From: Candidatus Omnitrophota bacterium
GTDB lineage: Bacteria; Omnitrophota; Gorgyraeia; Aquiviventales; Aquiviventaceae
Direction of reading: 5' to 3'
Length of the DNA: 61,854 nucleotides
NCBI GenBank assembly: GCA_023247255.1
Contig: JAHFGV010000011.1
Span: 1-61,854 of the forward strand
Shown here: in pieces, positions 8,227-42,363 of the stretch
Layout: every line of letters begins with the position of its first letter
Position numbering within the stretch: position 1 is the first letter of the stretch
The notes under the pieces: model-generated
Seen by the model: the letters and a program-made list of their open reading frames with translations, nothing else
What the model was told of the DNA's origin: nothing
The model's database searches: none
Translations under genes and position numbers: made by a program

Positions 8227-8265
8227 TCCAACTTCTCGATTCTTCGTCCTAATCCGTCGTAGCGA

Positions 8266-9702: not shown

Positions 9703-9734
9703 CGTAAATTCAGCCGCAAAACCGGGGGGTATAA

Positions 9735-9959: not shown

Positions 9960-10008
9960 CGCGTGGCCAGCTTGGGAAGCTGGAGCACTGCCACTGTGCT
10001 ATACCCGC
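9938..10008 (-). tRNA. tRNA-Gly (anticodon CCC)
   Basis: Manual cloverleaf: GCGGGTA TA GCAC AGTGGCA GTGC T CCAGC TTCCCAA GCTGG CCAC GCGGG TTCGATT CCCGC TACCCGC. CCA is not encoded. Confidence 0.9.
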
Positions 10009-12300: not shown

Positions 12301-13297
12301 CCGTCTTTAGCGTTCCGACGCCTGCTTCAATCGACACATCCACAATCTGATTTCCCCGGAGGCTCACCATCTGACCGAATCGGCCCGCCAGTACCAGCTC
12401 CACTGCCTTGACCCCAAAGCGCGTGCCCAGAATCCGGTCAAAGGCGGTCGGACTTCCCCCGCGTTGAAGATACCCCAAGACTGTGACCCGGGTTTCAAAT
12501 CCGGTACGTTCTTCAATGAGACTACCCAGAAGATGCCCAATGCCCCCCAGACGCACATGCCCGAAATCATCCCGGGACTTTTCTGTCACAACGTCCTTGC
12601 CCGCTTTGAGCTGTGCCCCTTCAGACACTACTACGATACTGAAATCCTTCCCGCGCGCGTGCCGCTTTTTGATCAATTCACACACCGCATCAATATCGAT
12701 GGGCTCTTCAGGAATCAAGATGACGTCCGCTCCCCCCGCAATGCCGGCGCACGTGGCGATCCATCCTGCGTGACGCCCCATGACTTCCGCGACCATAATG
12801 CGGTGATGGCTCTCAGCCGTCGTGTGCAACCGATCGATGGCTTCCATCGCGATATTGACAGCCGTGTCGAATCCGAAGGTATAGTCGGTCATCGAAAGAT
12901 CGTTGTCGATGGTTTTGGGCACACCGACGATTTTCACGTTGTGTTGCTTGACCAGTTTCGCGGCGACCCCTAAAGTATCTTCCCCACCGATGGCAATGAG
13001 GGCATCGAGCGGCAATCGCGTAAACGTCTGGAGCAGGCGACCTATGTCTTGCGGGTGCTTGAAGGGATTCGTCCTTGAAGTCCCCAGGATGGTTCCCCCC
13101 TTGGGAAGAATGCCTGAGACGGCATTCAGATCCAACGGTATCGCATCTGCTTCAATCAGCCCTTTCCAGCCATTACGAATGCCGATAACACGCAGACCTC
13201 CTTGAATCGCTCGACGGGTAACCGCACGGATCACTGGATTGAGCCCTGGACAATCCCCACCCCCTGTCAGTACGCCTAATTGTTGGATGGTCGTCAT
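12257..13297 (-). CDS. pfp: 6-phosphofructokinase, probably PPi-dependent
   Basis: GGGDCPGLN, IGGEDT and PKTIDND. Asp and Lys sit at the positions equivalent to E. coli Gly104/Gly124, which is the published PPi-versus-ATP discriminator. Confidence 0.75.
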   Translation of the reverse strand: MTTIQQLGVLTGGGDCPGLNPVIRAVTRRAIQGGLRVIGIRNGWKGLIEADAIPLDLNAVSGILPKGGTILGTSRTNPFKHPQDIGRLLQTFTRLPLDALIAIGGEDTLGVAAKLVKQHNVKIVGVPKTIDNDLSMTDYTFGFDTAVNIAMEAIDRLHTTAESHHRIMVAEVMGRHAGWIATCAGIAGGADVILIPEEPIDIDAVCELIKKRHARGKDFSIVVVSEGAQLKAGKDVVTEKSRDDFGHVRLGGIGHLLGSLIEERTGFETRVTVLGYLQRGGSPTAFDRILGTRFGVKAVELVLAGRFGQMVSLRGNQIVDVSIEAGVGTLKTVDNDLYALAKVFFG

Positions 13298-21834: not shown

Positions 21835-21897
21835 GCTGTTTGTAAGATCCTTGCGGGTTCAAAAAATGGGTTGCGTTTATGTAGAGCCCCACGAACT

Positions 21898-22010
21898 GAG
21901 CCTTTGGCACCCAAAAATACGCCCCGCGTGGGGCGACATCCCGCCCACCCGTTCGCTTAAGCAAACCAACTGGGACGATGCCTTCGGCCGTGGCCCGATG
22001 GTGGGGTTGA
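21898..22010. repeat. ~115-nt interspersed repeat, intergenic copy A (family also at 54148-54265 and 57251-57367)
   Basis: Shares gagcct(g/t)tggcacc ... ggggcgacatcccgcccacccgttcgct.aagcaaaccaactggg ... gccttcggccgtgg ... gggttgac with copy B at high identity. Confidence 0.85.
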
Positions 22011-22051: not shown

Positions 22052-22625
22052 CCATCTGTCAACCAAAGGGCAACCTATAAGCCGAGTTTTGTCCCCCGTG
22101 GTTTGCTTGAGTTTTTCGAAGACAAACCAAGCAACGGGGGGACGGTCATCCATCTGGTCCTGATGTTGCCACCAGGATCCTGCAGCCCACCTTTCCAGTT
22201 CTGCTCATCTGGCAGTTTCAGACTGGGCGTCTGTCCTCATAAACGAAGGACTGGAATGTTTGGCCTTGCTCCGCGTAGAGATTGCCGCGTTTCACCCCTT
22301 CGATCCGTACCTCTGTTTCGCTTGCACTCGCTCAAGACATACTTGCCTCAACAGACTTGTCCTGAGCGAACTTCGCCAGCGATGAGGGAATCGAAGGACT
22401 CGTCTCTGTGGCTCTCCCATCCTAAACAGGGATAGGTCCGCCGAGGCGGAATCCTCTCCCACTGCTTCGTTCCTTGGAATGCAAAGCAGTGGGGGCCCCG
22501 ACGTTATCGGGGTACGCTGCCCAGAAGAGCTCGGACTTTCCTCCCCCACTGTTTGGCTTTGCTTGGCATAAAACCAAACAAAGCCGCGGAGGCGACCGCC
22601 CGGCTGCCCTTTGGTTAACAGATGA
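22052..22625 (-). ncRNA. rnpB: RNase P RNA (bacterial type A), unusually long (~570 nt)
   Basis: On the minus strand: GGAGGAAAGTCCGAGCTC (22527-22544), GGGGTGAAACGCGG (22285-22298), GGAGCAAGGCCAAA, CCAGATGGATGACCGTCC, GACAAAACTCGGCTTATAGG (22074-22093). P1 pairs ~22602-22622 with ~22055-22075. Confidence 0.9.
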
Positions 22626-23893: not shown

Positions 23894-23941
23894 CTGGGGC
23901 TTTTGCAAAAATAGCCAACGCGTTGACCGAATGTTGTGTCC
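23894..23941. repeat. 48-nt conserved box containing the TTTTGCAAAA palindrome (second copy at 54556-54603)
   Basis: ctggggcttttgcaaaaatagccaacgcgttgaccgaatgttgtgtc is near-identical to 54556-54603. Shorter ctgaggttttgcaaaat copies occur at 47045-47061 and 49787-49803. Confidence 0.8.
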
Positions 23942-23945
23942 TATT

Positions 23946-24032
23946 CCAAGAGAAGTAATGAGGATTGTGTCATGTTTCATGAGTCATGCGTCATGGAACG
24001 ACAAAAGACATGAGAAGTCTTTCATGACACAA
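23946..24032. repeat. heptamer-array palindromic element, truncated copy R1
   Basis: The ccaagagaagtaatgaggattgtg end is followed by tcatgtt tcatgag tcatgcg tcatgga units. Confidence 0.75.
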
Positions 24033-24040
24033 CTGAAAGT

Positions 24041-24259
24041 CGCGGCTCCCTTCGAATCCCCTACCGCAAGATGATCAAAACCTGGGCGGTAGAGGATTCG
24101 CCGCCCTTCGCTCACTACGCTCGCTACGGGTCGGGCACCCGCCCCTTTCAAGGAATGGCGCTGCTCTTATTCATCGCATCGCCGTCTATCAAAAAAGCTC
24201 GCGGCTCCCTTCGAATCCTCTACCGCAAGATTATCAAAACCTGGGCGGTAGAGGATTCG
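24041..24259. repeat. direct duplication (2 x 60 nt, 2 mismatches) of the tRNA-Val 3' end plus complementary arm, flanking the 99-nt insert X (24101-24199)
   Basis: 24041-24100 versus 24200-24259. Each unit contains the 17-bp inverted repeat ttcgaatcc(c/t)ctaccgc / gcggtagaggattcgaa. Confidence 0.9.
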
Positions 24260-24315
24260 AACCTCTGACCTCATGCATGTGAGGCATGCGCTCTAACCGG
24301 CTGAGCTAACCGCCC
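24242..24315 (-). tRNA. tRNA-Val (anticodon CAC)
   Basis: GGGCGGT TA GCTC AGCCGGTTA GAGC G CATGC CTCACAT GCATG AGGTC AGAGG TTCGAAT CCTCT ACCGCCC A. Confidence 0.9.
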
Positions 24316-24561
24316 CATCGCTTCATCGAATCCTTATGGATGCCCCACGGCTTTACCATCCATCTATCCGGAAATGCTTGGTGCCTTAGCTCGCTCACAC
24401 ACCAACGGAGATACTAGTAACAAACTCCCTGTTCCTCCGACGATAGAAGGTCGGTATGTGCGCGAAGGCAGGCACCGATTCTGTCCTTTTTCGCGAAGCG
24501 AAAAAGGGCCGGTTCCTGAAGCGGCTGCCATGATGGCAGCCGCGGAATGTCGAGCGCGACG

Positions 24562-24751
24562 GGCGCTCCCTTCGATCCCTGCAAGACGATGGGCTGGGCA
24601 GGGATCGCCGCCTTCCGCTCACCTTCGGCTCGCTTCAGGTCGGGCACCCGCGCCTCCAAAGGTATGTCGCTGCTCCTATCCGTCGCAGCGACTTTAATTT
24701 GAGTCGGCGCTCCCTTCGATCCCTGCAAGACGATGGGCTGGGCAGGGATCG
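24562..24751. repeat. direct duplication (2 x 46 nt, identical) of the tRNA-Met 3' end plus complementary arm, flanking the 98-nt insert X (24608-24705)
   Basis: 24562-24607 equals 24706-24751. Each unit has the 12-bp inverted repeat ttcgatccctgc / gcagggatcgaa. X is homologous to the insert at the tRNA-Val locus. Confidence 0.9.
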
Positions 24752-24805
24752 AACCTGCGACCAACTGGTTATGAGCCAGCCGCTCTTCCACTGAGCTACC
24801 AGCCC
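24734..24805 (-). tRNA. tRNA with CAT anticodon (elongator Met type; could be a lysidine-dependent tRNA-Ile2)
   Basis: GGGCTGG TA GCTC AGTGGAA GAGC G GCTGG CTCATAA CCAGT TGGTC GCAGG TTCGATC CCTGC CCAGCCC A. No initiator features (G1-C72 pair, no 3x GC in the anticodon stem). Confidence 0.85.
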
Positions 24806-26442: not shown

Positions 26443-28230
26443 TTAACTCAGATTCAGAGCTCCAGACCTTTCCGGAGTCTTCACCTGCCGTTGAAATTCA
26501 ACGAGTAGCTCCCGGACCGCTTCTTCACGACCTGACTCTTGCGCTGACTGAATCTGTGACCGTAACCCATCCAACCGACGGGTTCGTGCCTGTTCGACTA
26601 ATCGACGAACACAATCCTCAAACACCAAATCTGAAGTGGGTTGATCTTGAGCAAAAGCGACCAGCTCCGTCACCAATACCCCCTCAGGCGCTCCCGATAG
26701 CCTCGAAACCACCTGGGCAGGACTCACTGAAGTCTCTTGTTCGCTGAGATCAATGACTACCTCTAAGATTCGGCGGAGTGCAGAATCGGTAACATCCTCT
26801 AACATCAGCTGCCCTTCAACCCGATTCCATCGCGTGGCATCGTCTAATACCAGAGCCGTAAAGAGCCGTTCTGGCCCTGAGGCCACAGACTGCCGCAGGA
26901 ATGTTTTGACATCGCTTTTACCTTCATCCCTCAACCGATTGCTCCGGTTCTGATATTTCGTCATTTCCTCCAGCATCGCTGCTTCATCCAGACGCAACCG
27001 ATCGGCGATCAGGTGCACGTACCTGTTACGCAAAATTGCGTTGGGCACCTTGGCAATGGTGGGAAGCATACTTTCCGCTGCCTTAACGGTCTCTTCGACC
27101 TTGGGGTGAGGATACCGTCGCAGCGCACCCGCAATCAGCGCATCGACAAGCGGAAGGCTTTGGTTGAGCCAGCGTTCAAATTCCTCTTTTCCTAGACGAT
27201 GCAAGTGCTCATCCGGATCCACCCCCACAGGAAGCTGGGCCACTTGAACCTGAAGTCCGGCCTCTACCAAAAGATCCAGACCCCTCATCGTCGCCGCCTC
27301 TCCCGCAGTATCCGCATCAAAAGCCAAAATGACTCGCTCGGCGTACCGTTTAAGCAACTGGATCTGCTCTCGGGTTAGGGCAGTTCCCAGTGGGGACACC
27401 ACCTGCGGGATGCCCGCATCCGATAAAACGACACAGTCGAAATACCCTTCCACAATGATCGCCGTGCGGCGATCGGTGATGGCCTCTTTGGCTTGGGTGA
27501 GGCCAAACAATATCCGGCCCTTGCTATATAATGAAGTCTCAGGGCTGTTGAGATATTTAGGCTGCTTCCCATCGAGACTTCGACCTCCAAAACCCACCAC
27601 CCGTCCACGGATATCAAGAATGGGAAAGATAAGACGCTGGCGAAAACGGTCGTAGAGATTCTTCTCTCGTCGGACAAGCAGACCGGCTTGCTCTAGCGCA
27701 TCGGGTGAAACGCCGCTTGATTTTGCGGCAGTCAACAAATGATCCCAACCATCCGGCGCCAGCCCCAATCGAAATCGCATCCGTGCTTGCTCGGAAACCC
27801 CTCGTTGCGCTAGATAAGCGCGCGCGGCTTTTCCCTGTTGAGGATGGGCGAGGGTACGCTCAAAATACTGACACACCTTTTCCAAGAGCGCTAGAAACTG
27901 TGAATGGTTGGGCTCACCAATTCCGGGTACTGTAGAATCTGGAATCTCCAGTCCGAACTGGTCGGCAAGCTGTCGAACCGCTTCTGGGAAAGTCAGCCTA
28001 TCGTGCTGCATGAGAAAGCTGAAGATATTTCCGCCCACCCCACAACCGAAACAATGGAAGATTTGCTTGTCGGTGTTCACCATAAACGATGGGGTTTTTT
28101 CCTTGTGAAAGGGACAGTGAGCCTTATAATGACGACCCGCTCGCTTGAGGGGAAGGTATCTGCCGATGAGATCTGCGATGTCTGCTCGGCGTTGAATTTC
28201 GTCAATCACCTCGAGAGGAATCAGTCCCAT
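26443..28230 (-). CDS. dnaG: DNA primase
   Basis: Zinc finger CPFHKEKTPSFMVNTDKQIFHCFGCGVGGN; TOPRIM IIVEGYFD and FDADTAGEAA. Confidence 0.95.
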   Translation of the reverse strand: MGLIPLEVIDEIQRRADIADLIGRYLPLKRAGRHYKAHCPFHKEKTPSFMVNTDKQIFHCFGCGVGGNIFSFLMQHDRLTFPEAVRQLADQFGLEIPDSTVPGIGEPNHSQFLALLEKVCQYFERTLAHPQQGKAARAYLAQRGVSEQARMRFRLGLAPDGWDHLLTAAKSSGVSPDALEQAGLLVRREKNLYDRFRQRLIFPILDIRGRVVGFGGRSLDGKQPKYLNSPETSLYSKGRILFGLTQAKEAITDRRTAIIVEGYFDCVVLSDAGIPQVVSPLGTALTREQIQLLKRYAERVILAFDADTAGEAATMRGLDLLVEAGLQVQVAQLPVGVDPDEHLHRLGKEEFERWLNQSLPLVDALIAGALRRYPHPKVEETVKAAESMLPTIAKVPNAILRNRYVHLIADRLRLDEAAMLEEMTKYQNRSNRLRDEGKSDVKTFLRQSVASGPERLFTALVLDDATRWNRVEGQLMLEDVTDSALRRILEVVIDLSEQETSVSPAQVVSRLSGAPEGVLVTELVAFAQDQPTSDLVFEDCVRRLVEQARTRRLDGLRSQIQSAQESGREEAVRELLVEFQRQVKTPERSGALNLS

Positions 28231-28303
28231 CCCCTTTTAGAACTCCTTTTATCGACGCCCATTCCACACTGTTCAGCATCGATAAGGACGCCCTGGTTGG
28301 ATC

Positions 28304-28864
28304 CTATTTCCGACGCCGAGCAGCACTGGGTTTGATGGGAGGAACAAACGTTTCTTTTCGATACTTGTATCCCGGGAAACGATTCGTGAAACGCGTTAGC
28401 ATCTCGCCAGAGGAGCTAAGAAATCGTCGTCCGAACACCGACTCTTGCTCAACACTTTGGGCCAAGTAGATAAAACCGCTTGAGCTTAACACGATTAAAA
28501 CAAAAGCTGACCACCACAATCCTCGAAGGCCCCCTACCACAGCACCTATTCCTTGGACAAACCCGTTCACCCTCTCCCACTTAATATCTTGCAGAATTCT
28601 CGTCATCCCCCACTGTCCAGCTAAAATCAAGCTGAGAAAGATCACCCAAAATAAAAAGAACTCATTCAGTGGGGAACTGCCGCCTAACCAAGGCTCCAGC
28701 CATTGCGTTACCAAAGGGGCATAATTAACAGTCAGACAAGTAACACTTACCGCTACAGCCAACATACTGATAGCCCATAGCAGTCCGCGTGCAAATCCGC
28801 TGTAACACGTTCTTAATACAAGAATTAGAACAACGAGATCAACCCAATTCGGCCAGACGTCCAC
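28304..28864 (-). CDS. cvpA: CvpA-family integral membrane protein
   Basis: Four predicted TM helices; the N-terminus WVDLVVLILVLRTCYSGFARGL is typical of CvpA. Confidence 0.7.
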   Translation of the reverse strand: MDVWPNWVDLVVLILVLRTCYSGFARGLLWAISMLAVAVSVTCLTVNYAPLVTQWLEPWLGGSSPLNEFFLFWVIFLSLILAGQWGMTRILQDIKWERVNGFVQGIGAVVGGLRGLWWSAFVLIVLSSSGFIYLAQSVEQESVFGRRFLSSSGEMLTRFTNRFPGYKYRKETFVPPIKPSAARRRK

Positions 28865-28968
28865 GGTAAATTCCTATTGTTAATTCATGAGCGGAGTATA
28901 CCATATCCATGCAAAGAGCGTCAAGGTAACGCTACCCAGAAGCGCTACCTTAATCCCAAATAGAATTC

Positions 28969-28995
28969 GCCCTTGACATCAAAGACGTCAAGGGC
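28969..28995 (-). terminator. 9-bp GC-rich hairpin downstream of the pilus operon (weak T tract)
   Basis: gcccttgac atcaaagac gtcaagggc. On the minus strand it is followed by gaattctattt. The same GCCCTTGAC/GTCAAGGGC arms recur at 45369-45394. Confidence 0.35.
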
Positions 28996-29103
28996 TGCCA
29001 AAATCGCACCCTGCGCTGCGATATCCTGAGCACCTTCACAAGCGGGTCCGTGTACCTTAACATCCCCGGCATGCTACTTACTTGCTCAGAAATTGCAGGA
29101 AAT

Positions 29104-29385
29104 TTAATTGGTGGCTCGGACTTTCACAATCCGAAGCTCTTCCATCACGTCATCAAAACGTTTCAGGATAGCCTCTTGATTCGCAAGGATTTGGTCTAGT
29201 TTCTGTAAAATCTTTACGTTGGCACCGAAATCGTTTGCCTGAGTGCTTCTGTGCCCAGATGCCTGATGTTGTGCCTTTGAACTGCTCGATGAGTCCTGAG
29301 CTAAGCTTATGGAACTCAGCCCAAGATACCCATTGCCTATCCCTAATCCAACCACGAGTGCCATGATTGACCTTTTTAGACTCAT
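29104..29385 (-). CDS. small secreted protein of unknown function, last gene of the pilMNOPQ operon
   Basis: Signal peptide ending SLAQD, a Ser-rich linker and a C-terminal amphipathic helix. Lies 6 nt after the pilQ stop. Confidence 0.5.
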   Translation of the reverse strand: MSLKRSIMALVVGLGIGNGYLGLSSISLAQDSSSSSKAQHQASGHRSTQANDFGANVKILQKLDQILANQEAILKRFDDVMEELRIVKVRATN

Positions 29386-29391
29386 CGGATG

Positions 29392-30966
29392 TCAATCCTC
29401 CCCATATCCATACCCCGATTGGGTGGATGCTAAAGACGCCTCAGTGGCGTGTGGAGCTTCCTCCATCAATTTCACAGTGAGGAAAATCAGCAAATCTTGC
29501 CTAAGGGTAGGGCTGCTGCTTCCCCCATAGCGATGGCGACTTTTAAACAGCACCCCGATAACCGGCAGATCTCCAAAGAAGGGAACCTTCCGGGAATCAA
29601 CGACTTCAGTTTCCTTAATCAAGCCTCCGATAGCAATGGTCTGACCATTTCCAATCCGAATCTGAGTTGTCACCGTCTGAGTACTAAACCGGGGAAGTGA
29701 CACGGAGTTACCTCCCCCCACATCAAACGTCTGATTAGAAAGCGCTGAGATGATTTCCGGCTTCATGTCCACTACAATCTCACTGCTGGGATTGACATGA
29801 GGCGTTACGGTCAGCAGGGTTCCAATCGTTTTCGTCTCAAACCCGCTGACCGTCGTGCGCCCTGTGGAAGGATCGATCGAATAGTTGGGAATAGGAAAAT
29901 CTTCACCGATATGTATCCTCGCTTCCTGGTTGTTTAAAACCGCCAAGGTCGGACTGGAAACAATGTGTGTATCGGCACGCGAGCGGAGGATATTGAGCGT
30001 CCAGCTAAATGCGGGTCCCGTCAGGGTCCCCAAGGTGATCGTCGAAGCTGCCGCCTTGGGAATAGGAGAAGCGACAAATTTATTTCCCAGGCTGCCCAAG
30101 GTGCTCTCGGCCGGAAGTGGAAAGCTCGAACCTAAACTGGCTGCCGTCTGCGCAAGGGAGAGCGACTGAGACCACTCGATACCCAGTTCTTCCTCCTCCT
30201 CAAGCTTGGTTTCCACAATTTTCGTTTCAACTAAAACCTGTGGGGTACGCTGATCCAAACGCTTAATCACTTCGTGAATTTGAAAGAGCTTGGTGGGAAT
30301 ATCGGTCACAATCACCGTATTGGTGCGCTCGTCGAATTTCACCTTTCCACGATCCGAAAGCATTTCGGTGATGATCTCTGGAACGCTCTGCGCCTTAGCA
30401 TAGTTAAGGAGAAAAACTTCCGTGGAAAGGGCCTCTTGCTCTAACGCGTCGATCGTCATGATTCGAACGATCTTGCCTTTGCGTTCATAGGTAAAACCGT
30501 AGGTCCTGAGGATAATATCCAGCGCCTGTTCCCATGGGACATCGGTCAATTTGATCGTCACCAACCCTTCCACATCCGTTCCCGCAACGATATCCACACC
30601 GCTTTTGAGCGAAAGAATACGAAGCACCTGCCGGATGTCCGCATCTTTAAAATCCAAACTGACCAACCCTTCCTCAGAAGAACGAACCGATTCTGGGCTA
30701 GCCTCAATAGACTGAGTCTCTAGCTGTTGCAAATCAGCGGATCCGGTCGTCGATACATCTTCCAACGATGATTCCGACTGATCTGATGAGCCATCTTCAA
30801 GCGATACGGAGGAAGCATCTGTAAGGGCATCTTCCTTATGTTCTTCTTGCGCCCAAGCCTGGACAGCACCGGTTAGAAGGATAACGCTGATTATCCCCAC
30901 AAGGCCCATGAAGGTGAATCCCAAAGACAGATCATCCTCCCACCTGAATTGTTTTACCCTTTTCAC
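29392..30966 (-). CDS. pilQ: type IV pilus secretin
   Basis: N0/secretin-N modules (VSLDFKDADIRQVLRILS). C-terminal secretin domain VPFFGDLPVIGVLFKS. Operon context pilMNOP. Confidence 0.85.
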   Translation of the reverse strand: MKRVKQFRWEDDLSLGFTFMGLVGIISVILLTGAVQAWAQEEHKEDALTDASSVSLEDGSSDQSESSLEDVSTTGSADLQQLETQSIEASPESVRSSEEGLVSLDFKDADIRQVLRILSLKSGVDIVAGTDVEGLVTIKLTDVPWEQALDIILRTYGFTYERKGKIVRIMTIDALEQEALSTEVFLLNYAKAQSVPEIITEMLSDRGKVKFDERTNTVIVTDIPTKLFQIHEVIKRLDQRTPQVLVETKIVETKLEEEEELGIEWSQSLSLAQTAASLGSSFPLPAESTLGSLGNKFVASPIPKAAASTITLGTLTGPAFSWTLNILRSRADTHIVSSPTLAVLNNQEARIHIGEDFPIPNYSIDPSTGRTTVSGFETKTIGTLLTVTPHVNPSSEIVVDMKPEIISALSNQTFDVGGGNSVSLPRFSTQTVTTQIRIGNGQTIAIGGLIKETEVVDSRKVPFFGDLPVIGVLFKSRHRYGGSSSPTLRQDLLIFLTVKLMEEAPHATEASLASTQSGYGYGED

Positions 30967-31409
30967 GGCCCTGTCCTCCTCTCTTTCTGTTGTTCTACCT
31001 CCTCCACCCCGGACAAGGGGGGCTCAAACGCAATATGAAGCACCACAGGCTCTCCATCATTATTGAGCACCACCGAGTCTTTCTGAATTTCCTTCACCTG
31101 ATAGAATCCAACGCTATCACCCACTTTGACTTCCGTGTTATTGATCAAAGCAATCGACTGGCCTTCGGGGTCCCACAAAATACCATAAAGGGTCGGTATA
31201 TTTCCGCTGGAGCCTGTGCTACCCTTTACGTTCACTACTCGCCCTTCCTCAATTAATGGGACGAAAGGATCTCGATGTCCTTTGGCATCGTAACGGAAAG
31301 AAGAGCCTTGCTGCACGTCTGTGCTGTCAGCCGCAGCGACTAAAACCTCAAACGCCCCGGCCCAGACAATCAGACCCATCCCCACCTGCACACACACACC
31401 TATTTTCAT
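30963..31409 (-). CDS. pilP: PilP-like pilus assembly protein
   Basis: RDPFVPL motif, C-terminal beta domain, and position between pilO and pilQ. Confidence 0.65.
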   Translation of the reverse strand: MKIGVCVQVGMGLIVWAGAFEVLVAAADSTDVQQGSSFRYDAKGHRDPFVPLIEEGRVVNVKGSTGSSGNIPTLYGILWDPEGQSIALINNTEVKVGDSVGFYQVKEIQKDSVVLNNDGEPVVLHIAFEPPLSGVEEVEQQKERRTGP

Positions 31410-31444
31410 TGGGTGTTGAATCCTCTCTTCATCCCAGCAGCCTG

Positions 31445-32137
31445 CTAAGGCTTAGATCCCGCAGCATCCTCAAAGAGCCCACTGGTCGTAACTGCACCTT
31501 GTGTGGCGAAGTACGATTGAATGATCACCTTAACAAAATGCGACCGAGGATTCTTGGGATTTTCGGAAATCTGCAGACTCGAGACTTGAATCATATGCTC
31601 GCCAAACTCTGCCAGACTCAAAAAATTTCCCAGTTGATGATAGCCTGCGAGCGCATCTACTTGAATCGGAATCTCGGCATAGACCGCGGGTTTGGAAGCT
31701 TCCTCCGCCTGGGTACCCGAAGCGTCATTGCCGGAATTCTTTAGCTCCTTTCTTTCCTTTCCTCCTTTTCCTTCTTTTCCTTCTATAGCGGGCCGTTGAG
31801 GAAAGATGGTTTGTATTTTCACATCCGTCTGACTTGCCAGATTGGATAGAAGCTCAATGACGGCTGGCAGCTCCTCCAAATCGGGGAGTGACTCGCGGAA
31901 TGAAGAAACCGCACCGTTGACCCGACGATATTCTTCCTTGAGCGCAGCTAGACTGGTCGTGTTACGCTGGAGGATGTCGATCTGGCCTTCGGCCTCTTTC
32001 ACCTGTTGCCCAAAAGCTGACATTTTTTTCAGCAATGGGCCTACCCAATAAGCGGTATAAATCCACAGAAACAGAACGGTGAGACCTCCTGCTAACAACA
32101 AGGTCTGTTGCTCACGACTGGATAGACGATGTTTCAT
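31445..32137 (-). CDS. pilO: type IV pilus assembly protein PilO (with a Lys/Glu/Gly-rich insertion)
   Basis: N-terminal TM helix plus coiled coil plus ferredoxin-like C-terminus. Operon position. Confidence 0.7.
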   Translation of the reverse strand: MKHRLSSREQQTLLLAGGLTVLFLWIYTAYWVGPLLKKMSAFGQQVKEAEGQIDILQRNTTSLAALKEEYRRVNGAVSSFRESLPDLEELPAVIELLSNLASQTDVKIQTIFPQRPAIEGKEGKGGKERKELKNSGNDASGTQAEEASKPAVYAEIPIQVDALAGYHQLGNFLSLAEFGEHMIQVSSLQISENPKNPRSHFVKVIIQSYFATQGAVTTSGLFEDAAGSKP

Positions 32138-32143
32138 TGAAAG

Positions 32144-32725
32144 TTAAGTCTCAGGGGTGGTTGACAATTGGCAGATAAGGGTGAAACGAACGACTTCGAT
32201 TTCCTTCTCATAGACACGTTTGAGCGATTCAATCTGGACATCCTTGAATGCGGAAGTAAACTCCGTATCCCCCTTGATATCTTGAACCAATTTTCCGACA
32301 TTGGCCATTTCGCTACCGCCCTGGCCAATCGCTGCACCTTGGATGACGAGACCTTTGACTGGATCCAAATCGAGATTGGTGAACCAGATTCCATCCGGGG
32401 TCAGATCAGACAGTTTATTGAGGCGCTGTGACCAAGCACGTCGATTGCCCGACTTGATTTGCTCAAAGGCCGCAGCTTCTCTTTTAAGCTGATTGAGAGC
32501 CTGTTGGAGTTTGTGAACCTCGAATTCCTTCGGCTTGAGTTGCTCGATTTGTTTGGTAAGAACATTCAGGCGTCGTTGATTCAAATGGACGGGAATAAGC
32601 AAAACCAGTCCAAATCCGATAAGCAGCCCTACCACAATCCATATAAGAGGAATACGATGCAGCTGTTCTAAAGATGAAAGCGAGGTCTCTCGAGCATCTT
32701 CGGGAAGCAGATTGATCTGTAACAT
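32144..32725 (-). CDS. pilN: type IV pilus assembly protein PilN
   Basis: The INLLPE N-terminal motif that binds PilM, a single TM helix, and operon position. Confidence 0.8.
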   Translation of the reverse strand: MLQINLLPEDARETSLSSLEQLHRIPLIWIVVGLLIGFGLVLLIPVHLNQRRLNVLTKQIEQLKPKEFEVHKLQQALNQLKREAAAFEQIKSGNRRAWSQRLNKLSDLTPDGIWFTNLDLDPVKGLVIQGAAIGQGGSEMANVGKLVQDIKGDTEFTSAFKDVQIESLKRVYEKEIEVVRFTLICQLSTTPET

Positions 32726-32731
32726 GGGGAA

Positions 32732-33763
32732 TTAATCCATCCTTAACGCCAGTCCATAGGCAATGGCAAATTGCCCGGACAGTTCCTTGGCAGGAATCCA
32801 AGGAGTAACCGGCTGCGTCAGATGGCTTTTGAGAGCAATCATGAAATCCGCCGATTGGCTTAGGCCACCCGTTACCAAGACTTCTGCGGGTGAACGACCA
32901 AAACGATTTTCAAAGTAATCGAAAGATAGCTGAAGTTCAGTTACCAAACCCTCGCACACCGTCTTCATGGCATCCGCAAGACCCGCAGGAGCAGGCTCAT
33001 CGCTAGAAGTCCGCAGAAGAATCTCGGGTTCTATTCCTAGATGTTCCGCCGCGTGTCGGAAACACTTCTCCGCCCCCCAGGGAATGTCCCGCACCAAATA
33101 GGGAATCTGACCTTGGCACATGGAAAGATTGGTGAATTGAGATCCCACATTGACTAATGCGGTGATGCCTTCTGGACGACCGTTGAAGGTGGCTAAAAAA
33201 CCATTCGTTAAGGCCACGGCATCCACATCGATGAGAGAAACTTCTAGCCCGGCCCGTTTGGCCCAATCCAGCCTGCGCTCGATCAATTCCTTACGACAGG
33301 CAATAATGAGTACCCAAACTTTGTTGCCCTCGGCAGGCCCCAATACCACCCCATCAATCACCACTTCTTGGAGATTAAAGGGCAGATAGCGTTGAGCTTC
33401 AAACGGAAGGGCCTGTCGAATTTCGGACAGAGCCATGTTGGGCATTTCGATGACGCGCATAATCACCCAGGATCCGCTCACTGACAAGGCGGCTGTTTGT
33501 AGAGGCAGGTGCAAACCACTTACAGCCGTCTTGATGGCTCGGGAAGGATCGGTTCCTTGAGCAGCGGGGATAGGTACAAGGTTGGATCCTAGAATGGGTC
33601 GAGTCCCAGGTCCCTTACGTGTTCCTAGTGCAACTACCTTCACGCAGGTGGATCCGATATCCACTCCAAGGGTAATCTTGGGTTCTTTCGACGTTACGGT
33701 AGTCAAACGTCTCAGGAATCTTCCTATAGATGAGAAATCAGGCAGACGGGGTGGAGGCGTCAT
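32732..33763 (-). CDS. pilM: type IV pilus assembly ATPase-fold protein PilM
   Basis: Actin-like fold pattern (LGVDIGSTCVKVV, LIDVDAVAL, VLVTGGLSQ). Confidence 0.85.
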   Translation of the reverse strand: MTPPPRLPDFSSIGRFLRRLTTVTSKEPKITLGVDIGSTCVKVVALGTRKGPGTRPILGSNLVPIPAAQGTDPSRAIKTAVSGLHLPLQTAALSVSGSWVIMRVIEMPNMALSEIRQALPFEAQRYLPFNLQEVVIDGVVLGPAEGNKVWVLIIACRKELIERRLDWAKRAGLEVSLIDVDAVALTNGFLATFNGRPEGITALVNVGSQFTNLSMCQGQIPYLVRDIPWGAEKCFRHAAEHLGIEPEILLRTSSDEPAPAGLADAMKTVCEGLVTELQLSFDYFENRFGRSPAEVLVTGGLSQSADFMIALKSHLTQPVTPWIPAKELSGQFAIAYGLALRMD

Positions 33764-33903
33764 CAGGAAGGAAGATAGGCGATGTAGATGTGTTTGACCT
33801 GCTTGTACACAACTGGTATCCCAATTCGGCTAACTATCCACATCCACCCCACTTCAATCTCGAGCTGCGTTACGAACTCTCTTTCCACGAGCTTAATGTA
33901 TCA

Positions 33904-33945
33904 CAAAAGATATGGCCCCGCAAAACAAAAAGCAGGGCCATATCT
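33904..33945 (-). terminator. rho-independent terminator after the pilin gene
   Basis: Minus strand AGATATGGCCCTGC-TTTTTGTTTT-GCGGGGCCATATCT followed by TTTGTG. Confidence 0.7.
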
Positions 33946-34003
33946 CCTCATCATCTATTGCCTTTCTCACTCACTGCTCACCGATTCTCTTTCAACTGCT
34001 TAA

Positions 34004-34600
34004 TTACGTGCAAAGTTGGACACCCGCAGCACCAGTGTTTCCATCCGGCGCTTGGTCAATGCTGCTCCAGTTTGGTCCATTGGCCGCTGTCGCTCCACAA
34101 GCACCTGCAGCACATGTGCAGTGACGAACAACCCCACTCTCATTGATAAAGAACGCTCGTGTCCCTGTCTGTCCTATGGTAGCTGGAACCGCCAGGGTAG
34201 TATACTGCTGTCCAACAGTAGTACCGTTTGCGTAGGTATAGTTGAATCCCTGAATGGTCTGACCGGTCATCGCAAGACAGAACGAGGGAGGACCAAAATC
34301 TGGAACGGGTGCGGTAGCGGCAGCACAATCAGCACCATACATTGCAGCCAGCCATGTCCCGTTCACAACGCCTGTCGTGTCTGGATACAGGTTAATTACT
34401 GAACGTTCCATCTCCAACGAGCTCATGACAGCCCGTAGATTTCCAATCGCAGAAGACTCATTCGCGCTCGTACGACCACGCAAAACGTTCGGAATTGCAA
34501 TTGCAGCTAACAACGCAATGATTGCCACTACGATCATAATCTCAACAAGTGTAAAACCGGATTGTTTCTTCGAACGTCGAAAACCGCAGCGTATGTTCAT
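34004..34600 (-). CDS. pilA: type IV pilin (prepilin with N-terminal cleavage/methylation motif)
   Basis: KKQSG/FTLVEIMIVVAIIALLAAIAIPN, a Cys-rich C-terminal globular domain, and SD AAGGAG 8 nt upstream. Confidence 0.9.
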   Translation of the reverse strand: MNIRCGFRRSKKQSGFTLVEIMIVVAIIALLAAIAIPNVLRGRTSANESSAIGNLRAVMSSLEMERSVINLYPDTTGVVNGTWLAAMYGADCAAATAPVPDFGPPSFCLAMTGQTIQGFNYTYANGTTVGQQYTTLAVPATIGQTGTRAFFINESGVVRHCTCAAGACGATAANGPNWSSIDQAPDGNTGAAGVQLCT

Positions 34601-34740
34601 GCTTTTCTCCTTTATCGGTAAGCGCTATTGCTATTATATATAAAGCCGCTTGTCCCAGTCACTCTAACAAGCTCGCCGCGTCCTTTTAATTCCCGTTTTC
34701 ACCTCCTCTAATCGGTTGCTTGTGAGTTGGGAAGTGCCAT

Positions 34741-34777
34741 TAATAAAATATGCCATTGCCGCTGTGGCAATGGCATC
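34741..34777 (-). terminator. intrinsic terminator inside the ~450-nt pilin leader (candidate expression platform)
   Basis: Minus strand ATGCCATTGCC-ACAGC-GGCAATGGCAT followed by ATTTTATT. Located between the structured motif (34915-35010) and the pilin start. Confidence 0.6.
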
Positions 34778-34914
34778 CTTCTTTCGGAGCGCTTCCCAGC
34801 GGCAACCCAGCCACCCTGTGATGGATAGCCTTATCCCGATGAGGTCTTGCTTTGGTCCTCAGCCCCGGGAAGGCTGATTCCCTACCCCATCGTTCTTAAG
34901 CTACCCGCCTAACT

Positions 34915-35010
34915 CCCACAGGGTCTGTGGCTTTCCCCTTGTACCAGATGGCACAAGGCCCTGCTCTTTTCGCAGGGGACCCCGCCTCTCGGCGAGTGTG
35001 GCTTTATCAC
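34915..35010 (-). promoter_or_regulatory. structured leader motif, copy 1 (divergent GEMM-I/c-di-GMP-I-like riboswitch candidate)
   Basis: Minus strand: AAAGCCACACTCGCC-GAGA-GGCGGGGTC, hairpin CCCTGC..GCAGGG, hairpin TTGTGCC..GGTACAA, then GGGAAAGCCACAGACCC. Same three-hairpin layout and 3' box as 41920-42035. Confidence 0.45.
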
Positions 35011-35099
35011 TGAGGCATTACAAATTTTTTATTGCCTCACACATGAGTTACTCTGTTACTATGCCACAGTGCTTCATTGAAAGTCAAGTGCTTTTATAG

Positions 35100-36311
35100 T
35101 TAATGTTGTACCAAAGTCGATATCTGGAAAATGGGCAAAAATAGGGCGATGACGATACCTCCAATGACTACTCCCAGAATGGCGATAACCAAAGGTTCAA
35201 TCAGGCTGGTCAGAGCAGACACAGCGGCGTCCACTTCATTTTCATAGAAGTCGGCGATCTTGGTCAGCATCTTCTCCAGTTCACCCGTCTTTTCACCCAC
35301 CGAAATCATTCGCGTCACCATTCCGGGGAACACCTTACTTTGAATCAGGGGGTCTGCTATGTTCTCGCCTTCTTTGATGCTGGAACGCGCAGCAAGAATC
35401 GCACGTTCAATCACCGTGTTGCCGGAAGTCTTGGCCACGATTTCCATCGCCGTAAGAATGGGTACCCCTGACTTCACCAAGGTCGCTAGGGTTCGGGCAA
35501 ACCGCGAGATCACCACTTTCTGCATGAGCTTACCGAGGACGGGTACCTTCAAAGTGATCCGATCGAATACAAACCTACCCGCCGGTGTGCTGAGGTAGGT
35601 TTTCAACAAAACGCCCATTACGAAAATAGCTGCCACTTCAAGCACCAGATACCGCCGCATGAATTCGCTGAGGCCGAGTAACATCTGAGTCGGACGGGGC
35701 AGTTGACCTCCCAGTGCCGTAAAGATCTCTTTAAACTTGGGGACGATAACGACAATCAAGAACGTAGTAATGGCGAAGGCCAAAATAGAGACAAACGCTG
35801 GGTAGAAGAGGCTGGCTTTCACCTTTCGCTGAAGGACGTCGACTTTTTCGATATAGCTGGCAACCCGATCGAGAATCTCATCCAGGCGTCCGGAAGACTC
35901 CCCCGCCCGCATCATGTTCACGAAAAATCCAGAGAAAACCTTCGGGTGTTTGCCGGCAGATTCCGAGAGACTTGAGCCCACCTCGATATCATCCCGCATC
36001 TTCCTCAGCACCTGCCCCAGATTTCGGTCATCGATCTGATCGGCAAGCACCTCAAGAGCGGAAATGATGGGAATGCCACTGTTGACCATTGTCGCTAGCT
36101 GGCGTGAGAAGATCACAAGCTGGCCGGATTTAACCCTTCCCTGCCCGACCTGCATGAGTGCATGTTTGGTCGATCGTCGCTCATCCACCGCTAATATGAC
36201 AAAATCCTGCTTCCACAACTGCTCAATCAGCGCGCTGCGCGACTCACTTTCTAAAGTCCCGCTATGCGTCTTGCCACTCTTGTCTTTTACCACGTAAGCA
36301 AATGTCGGCAT
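35100..36311 (-). CDS. pilC: type IV pilus platform protein (GspF/PilC family)
   Basis: Two T2SSF repeats and 3 TM segments; 403 aa. Confidence 0.9.
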   Translation of the reverse strand: MPTFAYVVKDKSGKTHSGTLESESRSALIEQLWKQDFVILAVDERRSTKHALMQVGQGRVKSGQLVIFSRQLATMVNSGIPIISALEVLADQIDDRNLGQVLRKMRDDIEVGSSLSESAGKHPKVFSGFFVNMMRAGESSGRLDEILDRVASYIEKVDVLQRKVKASLFYPAFVSILAFAITTFLIVVIVPKFKEIFTALGGQLPRPTQMLLGLSEFMRRYLVLEVAAIFVMGVLLKTYLSTPAGRFVFDRITLKVPVLGKLMQKVVISRFARTLATLVKSGVPILTAMEIVAKTSGNTVIERAILAARSSIKEGENIADPLIQSKVFPGMVTRMISVGEKTGELEKMLTKIADFYENEVDAAVSALTSLIEPLVIAILGVVIGGIVIALFLPIFQISTLVQH

Positions 36312-36364
36312 CGCATTCTCTTCATCTGACAGATTATTAACCGACTACTAAAAACCCACCGGAA

Positions 36365-38068
36365 TCACTCTTCGGTGGTCACGGCTATAACCTCTTCAAA
36401 AGTAGTGAGACCGAGTTCCACCTTTCGCAAGCCATCCTGACGCAAGGCGCGCATGCCTAAATGTCGAATCGCATGTTCCTTAACCTGCCAGGACTGTGCT
36501 CGGGAAACGACCAGTTCTCGAATGCGATCATCAACTTGAAAAAGCTCAATGATCCCCATACGACCGCGATAGCCGGTCTGATTGCAGTGACGACAACCCT
36601 TCGCTTTGAAAAAAGTGGCATCGGCAGAGGGGGTCATTCTAAGCTCCTTCAAGAGGGCTAAAGACGGCGTGATCGGCTCACGGCACTTGGCACAAAGCTT
36701 GCGCACCAGCCGTTGGGCCTCAATCAAGTTCACACTGGAAGCCACAAGAAAAGGTTCCACCCCCATGTCAATGAGACGCGTCATCGCTGAAGGGGCGTCA
36801 TTGGTATGTAGGGTGGAAAGTACCAGATGCCCCGTCAAACTGGATTTCATCGCAATATCGGCTGTTTCGAAATCACGGATCTCTCCGATCATTACCACAT
36901 CCGGACTCTGGCGGAGAATAGCCCGCAGACCGGCGGCAAAATTAAGGCCGATCTCTGAATTCGTTTGCATCTGGGTAATCCCTTCGACTTGATATTCCAC
37001 AGGATCCTCAATCGTCACTAGATTTCTGCCGGGTTGATTCAGGGTGTTCAAAACAGAATAGAGGGTGGTGGATTTCCCCGAACCCGTTGGGCCAGTAACT
37101 AAGATCATTCCATAAGGCCGTTCGATCGCTGCTTTAAATAGCGGAATGGATTCGGGCAGAAATCCCAGATGATCCAGGCCAATCGATAGACTCCCCTTAT
37201 CCAAGAGACGCAGAACCCCCTTACCCCCATGGGTGATCGGAAGAATGGAAACACGAAAGTCCACCTCCCGTTCATCCCACCGGACCTTAAATCGTCCGTC
37301 TTGCGGAATGCGTGATTCGGTAATATCGATGCCCGCCATGATCTTCAATCGAGTCAAGACAGGAGCCTGGACCGCCTTAGGAAGCCGCTGGGACTCGATC
37401 AATCGTCCGTCAATCCGGTAACGCACCCGCAGGCAATCTTTCACAGGCTCCAGGTGAATATCCGATGCCCGACGAGCCATCGCATCCGCCACCAACAGGT
37501 TAATGACGCGAACCGCCGGAGCGTCGTCCTCCTTTTCATTCAGAAGCAGAGCGACCGCAGTATTCAAAGAATCGCCGGGGGTTCCTTCCTCCATCTCTTC
37601 CGCGGAAAACGTCATCTGATTAGAGAATACTTGTTCGATGGCGCGGCGGATCTCGCTCTCTGCGCACAGAACGGGGTCGATCGCCATACGCGTGATGGCT
37701 TTCACGTCATCGATGGCGAAGATATTCAGGGGATCAGACATGGCAACCACCAATCGCTCTCCAAATTTCGACAATGCGATCAGCGAATAACGACGGCTCA
37801 ACCGTTCAGGAATCAAACGCGCAATCACGGGATCCAAACGGAATTTAGACAAGGAAATCATGGGCAGGCCGAGTGTTTGGGAAAGCAGCTCTGTCAGCTT
37901 AGTCTCCGATACAACCCCGTCATCAATGAGAAGACGTGCAAAATCTTTCCCACTCGAGGTCGCTTCAGCTTCCAAACGGTCCAACTGCTGCTGGGTAGCG
38001 ACCTGCTGAGACACTAGAACTTCTGAAATCTTTTGTCTGAAACTCGTTATTTTACTCACACCGGTCAT
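36365..38068 (-). CDS. pilB: type IV pilus/T2SS assembly ATPase (GspE/PilB family) with an N-terminal MshEN-type domain
   Basis: Walker A GPTGSGKSTT, Asp/His boxes, tetra-Cys CAKC...CRHC. The N-terminus contains DFARLLIDDGVVSETKLTELLSQ. Confidence 0.9.
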   Translation of the reverse strand: MTGVSKITSFRQKISEVLVSQQVATQQQLDRLEAEATSSGKDFARLLIDDGVVSETKLTELLSQTLGLPMISLSKFRLDPVIARLIPERLSRRYSLIALSKFGERLVVAMSDPLNIFAIDDVKAITRMAIDPVLCAESEIRRAIEQVFSNQMTFSAEEMEEGTPGDSLNTAVALLLNEKEDDAPAVRVINLLVADAMARRASDIHLEPVKDCLRVRYRIDGRLIESQRLPKAVQAPVLTRLKIMAGIDITESRIPQDGRFKVRWDEREVDFRVSILPITHGGKGVLRLLDKGSLSIGLDHLGFLPESIPLFKAAIERPYGMILVTGPTGSGKSTTLYSVLNTLNQPGRNLVTIEDPVEYQVEGITQMQTNSEIGLNFAAGLRAILRQSPDVVMIGEIRDFETADIAMKSSLTGHLVLSTLHTNDAPSAMTRLIDMGVEPFLVASSVNLIEAQRLVRKLCAKCREPITPSLALLKELRMTPSADATFFKAKGCRHCNQTGYRGRMGIIELFQVDDRIRELVVSRAQSWQVKEHAIRHLGMRALRQDGLRKVELGLTTFEEVIAVTTEE

Positions 38069-38113
38069 CTTATCGAATGATCCTCACGACTCACCCTACG
38101 TAAAAGAGCAAGA

Positions 38114-42361: not shown

Positions 42362-42363
42362 TA

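Follow-up and report, generated by a model that had tools for sequence, protein, structure and literature searches.

Islands and prophages of the integrase type, and their non-autonomous derivatives, the cis-mobilizable elements (CIMEs), insert at the T-loop sublocation of tRNA and tmRNA genes. Such an element carries a 3' part that restores the tRNA, leaves the displaced copy downstream and has a direct repeat that starts in the T loop. These elements stack serially with the newest next to the gene, and they occur sporadically among relatives. Serial arrays of tRNA or tmRNA 3'-end repeats are known, for example, at ssrA in Dehalococcoides (PMC3146451). Here we describe a stretch of 61,854 nt (contig JAHFGV010000011.1 of assembly GCA_023247255.1, positions 1 to 61,854; the whole stretch analyzed, hereafter the window) in which the three tRNA genes, Val, Met, and Gly, are each followed by a non-coding 3' insert framed by copies of the tRNA tail and by mirror copies of it. 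The behavior of these units is closest to that of the integrase-type elements, with which they share all of the above features. Unlike them, a unit of this kind measures 144-159 bp rather than kilobases, has neither an integrase nor an open reading frame (ORF), carries a complementary arm and a conserved folded RNA interior, and is flanked at occupied sites by repeats that reach 30-55 nt beyond the tRNA. The three loci look like an undescribed family of miniature mobile elements riding on tRNA genes. The host is Candidatus Omnitrophota, an uncultured groundwater bacterium from a phylum for which we know of no cultured member. The RpoD encoded beside tRNA-Met has hundreds of homologs at 70-85% identity, and the named ones are all Candidatus Omnitrophota/Omnitrophica, mostly from groundwater.

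All loci are read here on the minus strand, which is the strand of every window gene. We denote by A the tRNA 3' part from T-loop C56 to position 73, by L the spacer that follows it, and by A' the arm complementary to A. G is a conserved module of GGGAGC plus ~6 nt, H is the hairpin unit A-L-A'-G, and X is the insert. At tRNA-Met and tRNA-Val, the order is tRNA 5' part, H, X, H and flank, with the following features.

24734-24805, minus strand: intact tRNA-Met(CAT) (ARAGORN; Rfam tRNA, 72.6 bits)
24734-24751, minus strand: A1(Met), the first copy of the tRNA 3' part, equal to the last 18 nt of tRNA-Met
24706-24751, minus strand: H1(Met), comprising the 3' part from C56, a 7-nt spacer, the arm and the G module (direct and inverted repeat search)
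24715-24726, minus strand: arm A' in H1(Met), GCAGGGATCGAA
24706-24714, minus strand: G module in H1(Met), GGGAGCGCC
24608-24705, minus strand: X(Met), a 98-nt insert with a conserved two-domain structure on the tRNA-sense strand (alignment and consensus fold; covariance model R1, 128.9 bits)
24562-24607, minus strand: H2(Met), a copy 100% identical to H1(Met), with its arm at 24571-24582 (repeat search; doubled unitig depth)
24514-24568, minus strand: T module, 55 nt, two GC hairpins after G2 (repeated in metagenome contigs)
24389-24398, minus strand: GTGAGCGAGC, a possible right-end domain remnant of an older element (tentative; compared with the X right end GTGAGCG(A/G)AAGG)
24317-24335, minus strand: AAGGATTCGATGAAGCGAT, directly upstream of tRNA-Val, possibly the oldest arm-plus-G remnant (tentative; by-eye match to the 36-nt Met-Val spacer of the relative L030)
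24242-24315, minus strand: intact tRNA-Val(CAC) (ARAGORN; Rfam tRNA, 72.9 bits)
24199-24259, minus strand: H1(Val), comprising the 3' part from C56, the spacer, the arm and then GGGAGCCGCGA (direct and inverted repeat search)
24210-24226, minus strand: arm A' in H1(Val), GCGGTAGAGGATTCGAA
24101-24198, minus strand: X(Val), a 98-nt insert of the family of X(Met) (alignment and fold; model R1, 122.2 bits)
24040-24100, minus strand: H2(Val), a copy 97% identical to H1(Val), with its arm at 24051-24067 (repeat search)

The direct repeats are thus 61 nt long at Val (24040-24100 versus 24199-24259, 97%) and 46 nt at Met (24562-24607 versus 24706-24751, 100%). The inverted arms, 17 nt at Val and 12 nt at Met, are 100% complementary to the T loop and 3' strand of their own tRNA, and an A-to-G change in the arm of H2(Val) preserves pairing in the form of a sense-strand G-U. 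X(Val) and X(Met) share 81% identity over a 63-nt core and 76% over the full G+X stretch. Throughout the 61.9-kb window, close-spaced long direct repeats (at least 40 nt, less than 200 nt apart) are found only at the three tRNA genes. CCA is encoded in none of these genes. A preliminary description of the Val and Met loci, made from the sequence, gave coordinates and sequences that all hold on re-examination; what it took for a "CCA" after the Val arm is not a CCA end but acceptor positions 71-73. It missed tRNA-Gly(CCC), where the same geometry surrounds a different insert.

9938-10008, minus strand: intact tRNA-Gly(CCC) (ARAGORN, Rfam)
9884-9959, minus strand: H1(Gly), comprising the 3' part from G52, the spacer, the arm and then 24 nt (repeat search)
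9908-9922, minus strand: arm A' in H1(Gly), AGCGGGAAGCGAACC, 15 nt, complementary
9806-9883, minus strand: X'(Gly), a 78-nt insert of a second family, with three hairpins (fold z = -8.2; other metagenome copies)
9730-9805, minus strand: H2(Gly), the second H copy, forming a 76-nt repeat 99% identical to H1(Gly) (repeat search)
9618-9657, minus strand: GTGAGCGAG.. and then CGATCCCGCAACGAGCT, perhaps the right end of an older element and a decayed original tRNA-Gly 3' part (tentative; by eye)

The sequence of X'(Gly) is unrelated to X. In its minimum-energy fold (z = -8.2), the three hairpins lie within a helix of the arm with the second tRNA 3' part (A':A). Extra copies of X'(Gly) are present in groundwater metagenomes, many per genome, as for X. 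The candidate decayed tRNA-Gly 3' part at 9618-9657 matches at 14 of 18 positions, an alignment made by eye and regarded as tentative. The neighboring stretch from the tRNA-Gly units to the M23 peptidase gene (8227-9600, minus strand) contains a 181-aa ORF belonging to no family and a seemingly fragmented coding sequence, and it is wholly absent from the relative L096.

An assembly artifact, a concern raised in the preliminary description, is conceivable because repeats longer than the k-mer may be mis-joined. Four groundwater runs contain the window sequence in their Logan assemblies. One unitig of 232 nt (24040-24271) that leads from H2 through X and H1 into tRNA-Val was found with 0 mismatches in independent Logan assemblies of 3-4 runs, and it is unambiguous because the two Val H copies differ at 2 positions. 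At Met, unitig depth was 42 for the 46-nt H, 22 on the tRNA side and 19 on the X side, so that H stands at doubled depth, as expected for two H copies per genome. Because k-mer unitigs alone cannot distinguish H-X-H at this locus from a free H+X circle accompanied by a solo H, the Met unitig graph by itself is compatible with an artifact. The Val unitig and the Met depths nevertheless reproduce the duplications in independent assemblies, and the architecture recurs in assemblies of other species (L012, L026-L028). It is thus exceedingly improbable that the tandem repeats are artifactual.

We compared the orthologous rpoD - tRNA-Met - tRNA-Val - CT398 locus in eleven related species, where the following states were found.

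L036, L092, L093, L094, L095: Met and Val sites empty, with the tRNAs 6-121 nt apart, no arm and no X
L030: a 36-nt Met-Val spacer consisting of L, the arm in decayed form and G
L032: L, arm and G, with unrelated sequence behind them
L025: L, arm and G plus the left part of X only (truncated copy)
L026: full X, a second tRNA 3' part with two extra C, and a second H that has clearly diverged
L034: at tRNA-Val, a mini-insert of 42 nt that ends in ..GGAGGCGG and precedes a second 3' part whose T stem and loop differ

The species with empty Met/Val loci have 81-85% RpoD identity. At tRNA-Gly, the site is empty in L096, in which the order is thiE, tRNA-Gly, 18 nt and the next gene. The empty sites, arm-only remnants, and truncated and full copies in relatives indicate that insertions have been gained and lost. 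At all three tRNAs, the window thus holds insertions that close relatives are without. The orthologous Met copies are 70.6% alike, which is no more than the Met and Val copies of the window (76.1%). The two extra C of the downstream copy in L026 and the different T stem and loop of that in L034 mark the downstream copy as the relic, with the tRNA-proximal copy as the functional one. As a separate observation on L026 (12045-12215), tRNA-Val lies between 11-nt inverted repeats, ATCCCGACGAC and GTCGTCGGGAT. These repeats sit in an apparent tRNA(CAT)-like gene, GGGCGCA..GAGGTC before and TGCGCCCA after the insertion, which replaces its T loop, and the region reads as a tRNA gene nested within the T arm of another tRNA gene. 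A 5' fragment of a gene of this tRNA(CAT)-like type is also present in L034 near 12340-12395.

A pattern scan of the genome collection placed a copy of X at tRNA-Arg(CCG) of L012, a metagenome-assembled genome of a groundwater Omnitrophota. The tRNA is followed there by L, a 14-nt arm matching tRNA-Arg, GGGAGCGCCGG and an X with an extra hairpin. The right border of X, ..AAGGGCGG, adjoins CGAGTCCTGCTTGGGGCA, which is the second 3' part, and an insert of another kind, Y, and a third 3' part come next. The arm and G are present once, inside the insertion, and the repeat around X consists of the 18-nt tRNA 3' part only, so that the arm and G are element-borne and not part of the target. The hairpin repeat Y (GGTATCGGTTATCGGTGATCGC..) was observed at 1-130 and 7545-7630 of L012, beside tRNA-Met and tRNA-Arg; at tRNA-Arg, 69-nt repeats made of the tRNA 3' part and adjoining flank enclose it, and a complementary arm is absent.

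When groundwater contigs were placed on X(Met) at 80% likeness, at least 6-8 further copies of X, 80-90% like X(Met), were found in the same runs at the genome's own depth of 12-16x. Their upstream arms differ and are complements of T loop and T stem (GTGGGTGGGATCGAA, GTGGCTGGGATCGAA, GCACTGGGATCGAA, GCGAGGGATCGAA, GGGGGATTTGAA), and differing tRNA 3' parts stand directly after ..GGAGGGMGG. One metagenome contig of 743 nt contains two X copies ~195 nt apart. The junction of X is constant, with X..GG(C/A)GG joined to C56 of the T loop. The left border of the second copy is C56 everywhere except at Gly, where it is G52, and all units are co-oriented with their tRNA. That X is one homologous element at the same structural position in different tRNA genes, as the preliminary description proposed, is borne out by the junction, always at T-loop C56, and by the tRNA-Arg copy and the metagenome copies with other arms. 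The orthologous empty sites through which it suggested defining the target duplication exist for all three tRNAs. Its notion of very long target duplications does not stand: the arm and GGGAGC occur once in L012, the second H has diverged in L026 and the empty sites are armless, and the repeated H is therefore largely element-derived rather than a simple target duplication. The window accordingly holds about 1.3-1.5 tandem units, a new unit beside an older decayed one.

The T module (GAGCGCCCGTCGCGCTCGACATTCCGCGGCTGCCATCATGGCAGCCGCTTCAGG) represents a third family, far more abundant than X. It was found with sharp borders in ~30 distinct contigs per run, each time after a different tRNA-complementary arm and GG(C/T)C, and in one metatranscriptome contig; none of the 95 loci fetched for comparison contains it. 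We take the copy at 24514-24568 for the left part of an element that is older and belongs to a sister family. Other collections yielded little. A scan of the genome collection with the X core GGGTGCCCGACCNNNAGCGAGC gave 21 matches, of which the one in L012 is the sole real one and the others lie in coding regions; a scan of the metagenome collection with GCGGGTGCCCGACCNNNAGCGAGC gave 3 chance matches within genes. Among viral contigs, there were 0 matches to the X core, 0 to the T module and 55 chance matches to TCGAAGGGAGCGCCG, and blastn of G+X against phage and plasmid collections gave no match. A protein search with the translated open antisense frame of X returned only the window's own ORF. 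Covariance model R1, run on the window and 12 Omnitrophota loci, recovered only its four source copies, with L025 scoring weakly as a truncated copy. In the literature, including a preprint on Omnitrophota mobile elements, we found no description of such elements.

X looks like a conserved structured RNA. A consensus fold derived from the four full copies (Val, Met, Arg of L012 and Met of L026), which also make up the structure alignment, reaches -38.9 kcal/mol on the tRNA-sense strand versus -29.1 kcal/mol on the antisense strand. It has a closing helix of A' with the downstream A. P1, in which the G module (GCGCC) pairs with GGCGC just before the invariant core GGGUGCCCGAC, is followed by P2 and by the P3 hairpin, whose 11-nt loop, GAYGRAYAGGA, is conserved. 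A long irregular hairpin makes up the second domain; it contains a purine-rich 3x3 internal loop and tandem G-A/A-G pairs, with GCGAGC facing GYGAGC, and its tip varies in length. In the alignment, 93.9% of cells are paired versus 34-51% in controls with slid partners, 9 pairs are changed on both sides versus 0-2 in these controls, and 0 of 500 shuffles reached the observed pairing score. At the P3 hairpin pair 24688/24670, two metagenome contigs carry double changes on the same contig, C-G to A-U and C-G to G-C. One U-G pair is invariant and there are several further G-U pairs, which would be A-C on the opposite strand, so that the structure fits the tRNA-sense strand only. X is thus most likely a co-transcribed RNA, predicted to be made from the tRNA-sense strand. 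An RNA module co-transcribed with tRNAs had been the alternative offered by the preliminary description, and this part of it gains support from the conserved structure and from G-U pairs that fit the sense strand alone; folding X together with the tRNA tail, as it also suggested, gives the conserved two-domain fold with compensatory changes.

The fold matches no described family to which we compared it. At Rfam gathering thresholds, the whole window returns only tRNAs and RNase P RNA, and the covariance models of Rfam 15 at E up to 10 give no match to X, only tRNAs. A scan of the tRNA strand for promoters and terminators found nothing above chance. An intrinsic terminator was rejected for want of a U tract after the hairpin, and an HDV-like or other known ribozyme was rejected because no model matches. 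Like group I introns of bacterial tRNA genes, X is a structured RNA in different tRNA genes, sporadic among relatives, whose guide-like segment covaries with the host tRNA, with which it forms a hairpin. Unlike in those introns, the upstream tRNA is already complete, which makes splicing needless, the position is the T loop and 3' end instead of the anticodon loop, and the ~110-nt X has no group I core. There is also a likeness to the retron non-coding RNA (msr-msd), in which terminal inverted repeats close the RNA, ..AGC stands directly after the 5' arm, and a small multi-hairpin domain precedes one long hairpin with a variable tip. Unlike in retrons, there is no adjacent reverse transcriptase and no Rfam match, and the closing arms are tRNA-derived; the genes directly downstream encode a CT398-like protein and RNase HI, conserved in relatives with empty sites, and not a reverse transcriptase.

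If X is an RNA, it need not be mobile. It could be a lineage-specific tRNA trailer acting in processing, stability or regulation, spread by local duplication and repeatedly lost, with the alternative pairings A1:A'1, A'1:A2 and A2:A'2 serving as an attenuator that reports on tRNA folding. This four-segment pairing scheme is present, the element is always co-oriented with the tRNA, its structure is conserved on the sense strand, and the related T module occurs in a metatranscriptome contig. However, X cores stand at Val, Met, Arg and at least 5 other tRNAs with different arms, which local duplication cannot yield, and most close relatives have nothing inserted at the orthologous sites. Serial insertion is indicated by relic 3' parts and by the layered remnants, and the hairpins are not followed by a terminator-like U tract. 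We therefore consider an immobile trailer RNA rather unlikely.

The arm could also be a guide: A' and/or the downstream A, presented on an X scaffold, would pair with the tRNA gene and direct a nuclease or recombinase acting in trans. Analogs are IS110 bridge RNAs and the omega or guide RNAs that serve IscB, TnpB and the tRNA-homing CRISPR-associated transposons (CASTs). A target-matched segment of 12-17 nt does lie directly 5' of a ~110-nt conserved structured RNA, the RNA structure is conserved, and the arms differ among copies exactly as the host tRNAs do. The tRNA-specific parts are, however, found only outside the conserved fold, unlike the internal loops of bridge RNAs; X matches neither HEARO nor any other Rfam family at E up to 10; the window and related loci contain no IS110, IscB, TnpB or Cas gene, nor any gene for a DEDD recombinase; and the arms tolerate mismatches and decay in place (L026, L030, L032). 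A guiding arm thus seems quite unlikely. Nor does the arrangement correspond to a CRISPR array, as the repeats are tRNA-specific, the "spacer" X is conserved between loci and no cas genes are present.

In our favored reading, to which we assign a probability of roughly 0.5, these are miniature mobile elements, non-coding and non-autonomous, that live in the tRNA 3' ends of Omnitrophota and gain units by recombination. The unit of 144-159 bp comprises, in tRNA-sense order, a replacement A, L, A', the G module (GGGAGCSSCGAC) and X, with an X core of ~100 nt ending ..AAGG(G)CGG. The periodic string A-L-A'-G-X-A-L-A'-G can be cut in many equivalent ways; relatives with a single unit and empty sites fix the inserted block as A-L-A'-G-X or, equivalently, L-A'-G-X-A. 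Such a unit would recombine with the locus, in a Campbell-type or site-specific manner, inside sequence common to both, which would be the tRNA 3' part A alone at a naive site and the whole H at an occupied site. The tRNA would be kept intact, and older units would be pushed downstream and decay there. The repeat would be as long as the sequence in common, which gives 18 nt for L012 and 46-76 nt for the window; its right border is observed to vary between 18 nt (L012), 46-76 nt (window) and 69 nt (around Y in L012). Recombination anywhere within the shared sequence would account for the borders, the repeat lengths, the direction of decay and the layering. As the unit contains no enzyme, a recombinase or host recombination would act in trans. 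Behind a co-oriented tRNA, the element would be transcribed from the tRNA promoter and possibly processed, and its RNA would fold into two domains, P1-P3 and the long irregular hairpin, while A' could pair either with the downstream A, which closes the fold, or with the upstream A in a hairpin. The T arms of different tRNAs differ at few positions only, and selection for the helix or template-switch correction of a quasi-palindrome are candidate routes by which an arm might come to match a new tRNA.

Successive insertions may have left layers. At the Met locus, from tRNA-Met outward to the oldest, we tentatively distinguish H and X, H with the T module and what follows, GTGAGCGAGC, and the arm plus G before tRNA-Val, a remnant that appears to resemble the entire Met-Val spacer of L030. 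At the Gly locus, H2 would be followed by GTGAGCGAG.. and then by the possible decayed 3' part. Several other origins for parts of the unit were considered and rejected. The arm does not pair with the last 3-8 nt of the tRNA, as a primer-binding site for tRNA-primed reverse transcription would; the spacer is not palindromic, as hairpin opening (P nucleotides) as the origin of the arm would demand; and CCA follows none of the second copies, which speaks against a cDNA or other copy taken from mature tRNA.

The tRNA 3'-end repeats that start in the T loop are the classic signature of integrase-mediated insertion, and as in integrative elements, a direct repeat of the tRNA 3' segment flanks the insert and the tRNA is intact. 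The loci might hence be scars of large integrase-borne elements, prophages or islands, that lost their interior so that the att-proximal ends became fused, and the serial repeat arrays at ssrA of Dehalococcoides (PMC3146451) are a precedent. However, X(Val) and X(Met) have the identical length of 98 nt and the copies can be aligned over their full extent, which independent deletions would not produce; pairs of the left G module covary with the middle of X, which marks X as one folded unit; and many compact copies lie in one genome. No large relative with these ends (left L-A'-GGGAGC.., right ..GTGAGCGAAGGGCGG) was found in genome, metagenome, viral, phage and plasmid collections. No gene for a tyrosine or serine recombinase accompanies the att site in the 36 of 47 window ORFs scanned or in related gene tables. 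A scar origin is thus very unlikely.

Integron attC sites and CTX phage, which uses XerCD, recombine through folded single-strand sites, and the units resemble attC cassettes and CTX-type integrative mobile elements exploiting Xer (IMEX) in that imperfect inverted repeats with a variable spacer flank a short insert and that arrays are possible. By analogy, A-L-A' could fold in single-stranded DNA into a duplex copy of the T-arm region, and a recombinase could swap a single strand of this hairpin with the tRNA gene or with another hairpin, which would make H-X-H a cassette flanked by recombination hairpins. Such an exchange would yield the observed order: when simulated between a folded circle and the T loop (between T55 and C56), it gives exactly A-L-A'-G-X-A, as in L012 and L026. 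Two near-perfect hairpins surround the insert at all three window loci, as hairpin-by-hairpin excision needs, the 743-nt contig with its two X copies is array-like, and the arm is given a mechanistic role. Against this, the hairpin is made of the target gene's own sequence and the content is structured RNA in place of an ORF, unlike in attC cassettes and IMEX. The T-loop GTTCGAA does not fit the attC core GTTRRRY; measured against R''/R' (RYYYAAC / GTTRRRY), the feet are TTCGA / TCGAA, with C where R is required. Neither an integron-type (IntI with attI) nor a Xer-type recombinase was found in the scanned window ORFs or related loci, the 69-nt repeats of the Y insert in L012 have no complementary arm, and X is left unexplained, whose G-U pairs, tandem G-A pairs and conserved loops indicate RNA. 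We regard a hairpin-site cassette as unlikely.

Miniature inverted-repeat transposable elements (MITEs) and repetitive extragenic palindromes and their mosaics (REP/BIME) are likewise small, non-coding, multi-copy, hairpin-rich and intergenic, probably mobilized in trans, and often co-transcribed with the upstream gene. The units match them in being small, non-coding and present in many copies per genome (at least 6-8 more X copies at genome depth, and likewise for the Gly family). Unlike MITEs, they have no fixed terminal inverted repeats shared by the family, as the ends of X, GGGAGC.. and ..GGCGG, are not inverted copies of each other and the A'/A pair changes with each host tRNA. There is no short target duplication of fixed length (the repeats are 18, 46, 61, 69 and 76 nt), and target and orientation at the tRNA 3' end are strict.

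Several observations weigh against our favored reading. The H copies are 97-100% identical, including the variable spacer, yet the sequence after H2 is unrelated to X; this identity calls for gene conversion, an incoming unit of the same lineage, re-integration of a unit excised locally, or insertion by a mechanism that doubles H. Nor does the reading account for the way in which A and A' both come to match a new tRNA. In the short-read k-mer contigs of the four DNA runs, we saw no excised circle, no polymorphic empty site and no empty-site joint, and three low-depth metatranscriptomes of the same study contain no RNA contig over X. The evidence for structure comes from four full copies and from variant calls on fragments. 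We found no autonomous parent element, and neither the unit, which has no ORF, nor the gene tables of related loci contain a recombinase, transposase or reverse transcriptase. A Pfam scan that covered 36 of the window's 47 ORFs with 180 aa or more likewise found none of these, only housekeeping functions (UvrD-type helicase-nuclease, HD hydrolase, M23 peptidase, ThiE, PFK, biotin carboxylase, RmuC, M16 peptidase, RNase HI, CT398-like, type II/IV secretion, FtsW, PBP2, MreB/C and others). The other 11 ORFs form the DnaG-to-secretion block at 26443-39841, whose orthologs in related gene tables are DnaG, CvpA and pilus/type II secretion proteins.

A further reading is that the units are a new kind of mobile element, the sole product of which is a ~110-nt structured RNA, whose attachment site is rebuilt from the host T arm and whose arm either folds into a copy of the target or guides. 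The element could then in effect be programmed for any tRNA gene. We hold this to be doubtful, though worth stating. In its boldest version, the element would have a ~150-nt circular DNA or RNA cycle, and the RNA itself would take part in the reaction.

Other features of the window were observed in passing. The RNase P RNA (22062-22611, minus strand) is of class A (147 bits) and measures 550 nt against a model of 367 positions, with five long hairpin expansions at peripheral helices. A dispersed repeat at 21880-22009, 54012-54245 and 57233-57366 is 89% identical over 96 nt, and one copy closely follows the RNase P RNA gene on its 3' side. Another repeat family, intergenic and with many CATGAC/CATGAA motifs, lies upstream of genes at 23897-23988, 42213-42366, 49872-50037, 54559-54762 and 61609-61738. 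The copy at 23900-24000 reaches a depth of 2000-5700x in the groundwater runs versus 12-20x for this genome, which indicates that the motif is common to many abundant organisms. An 833-aa frame (47114-49615, minus strand) joins a domain of the EPSP-synthase fold (MurA-type) to a full MreB and may represent either a fusion or an in-frame read-through of two genes.

In conclusion, we report units at three tRNA genes of an Omnitrophota genome that, if our favored reading is confirmed, would be the smallest known class of elements homing to tRNA genes. They would also exemplify an RNA, selfish or domesticated, that is expressed from a borrowed tRNA promoter and may make use of the tRNA-processing machinery as well. 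In practice, short-read assemblies break at tRNA genes that carry such units, which also explain odd long inter-tRNA spacers in Omnitrophota genomes. The arms pose the question of how a non-coding element re-derives the sequence of its target, and the answer could reveal a new recombination or guide mechanism.

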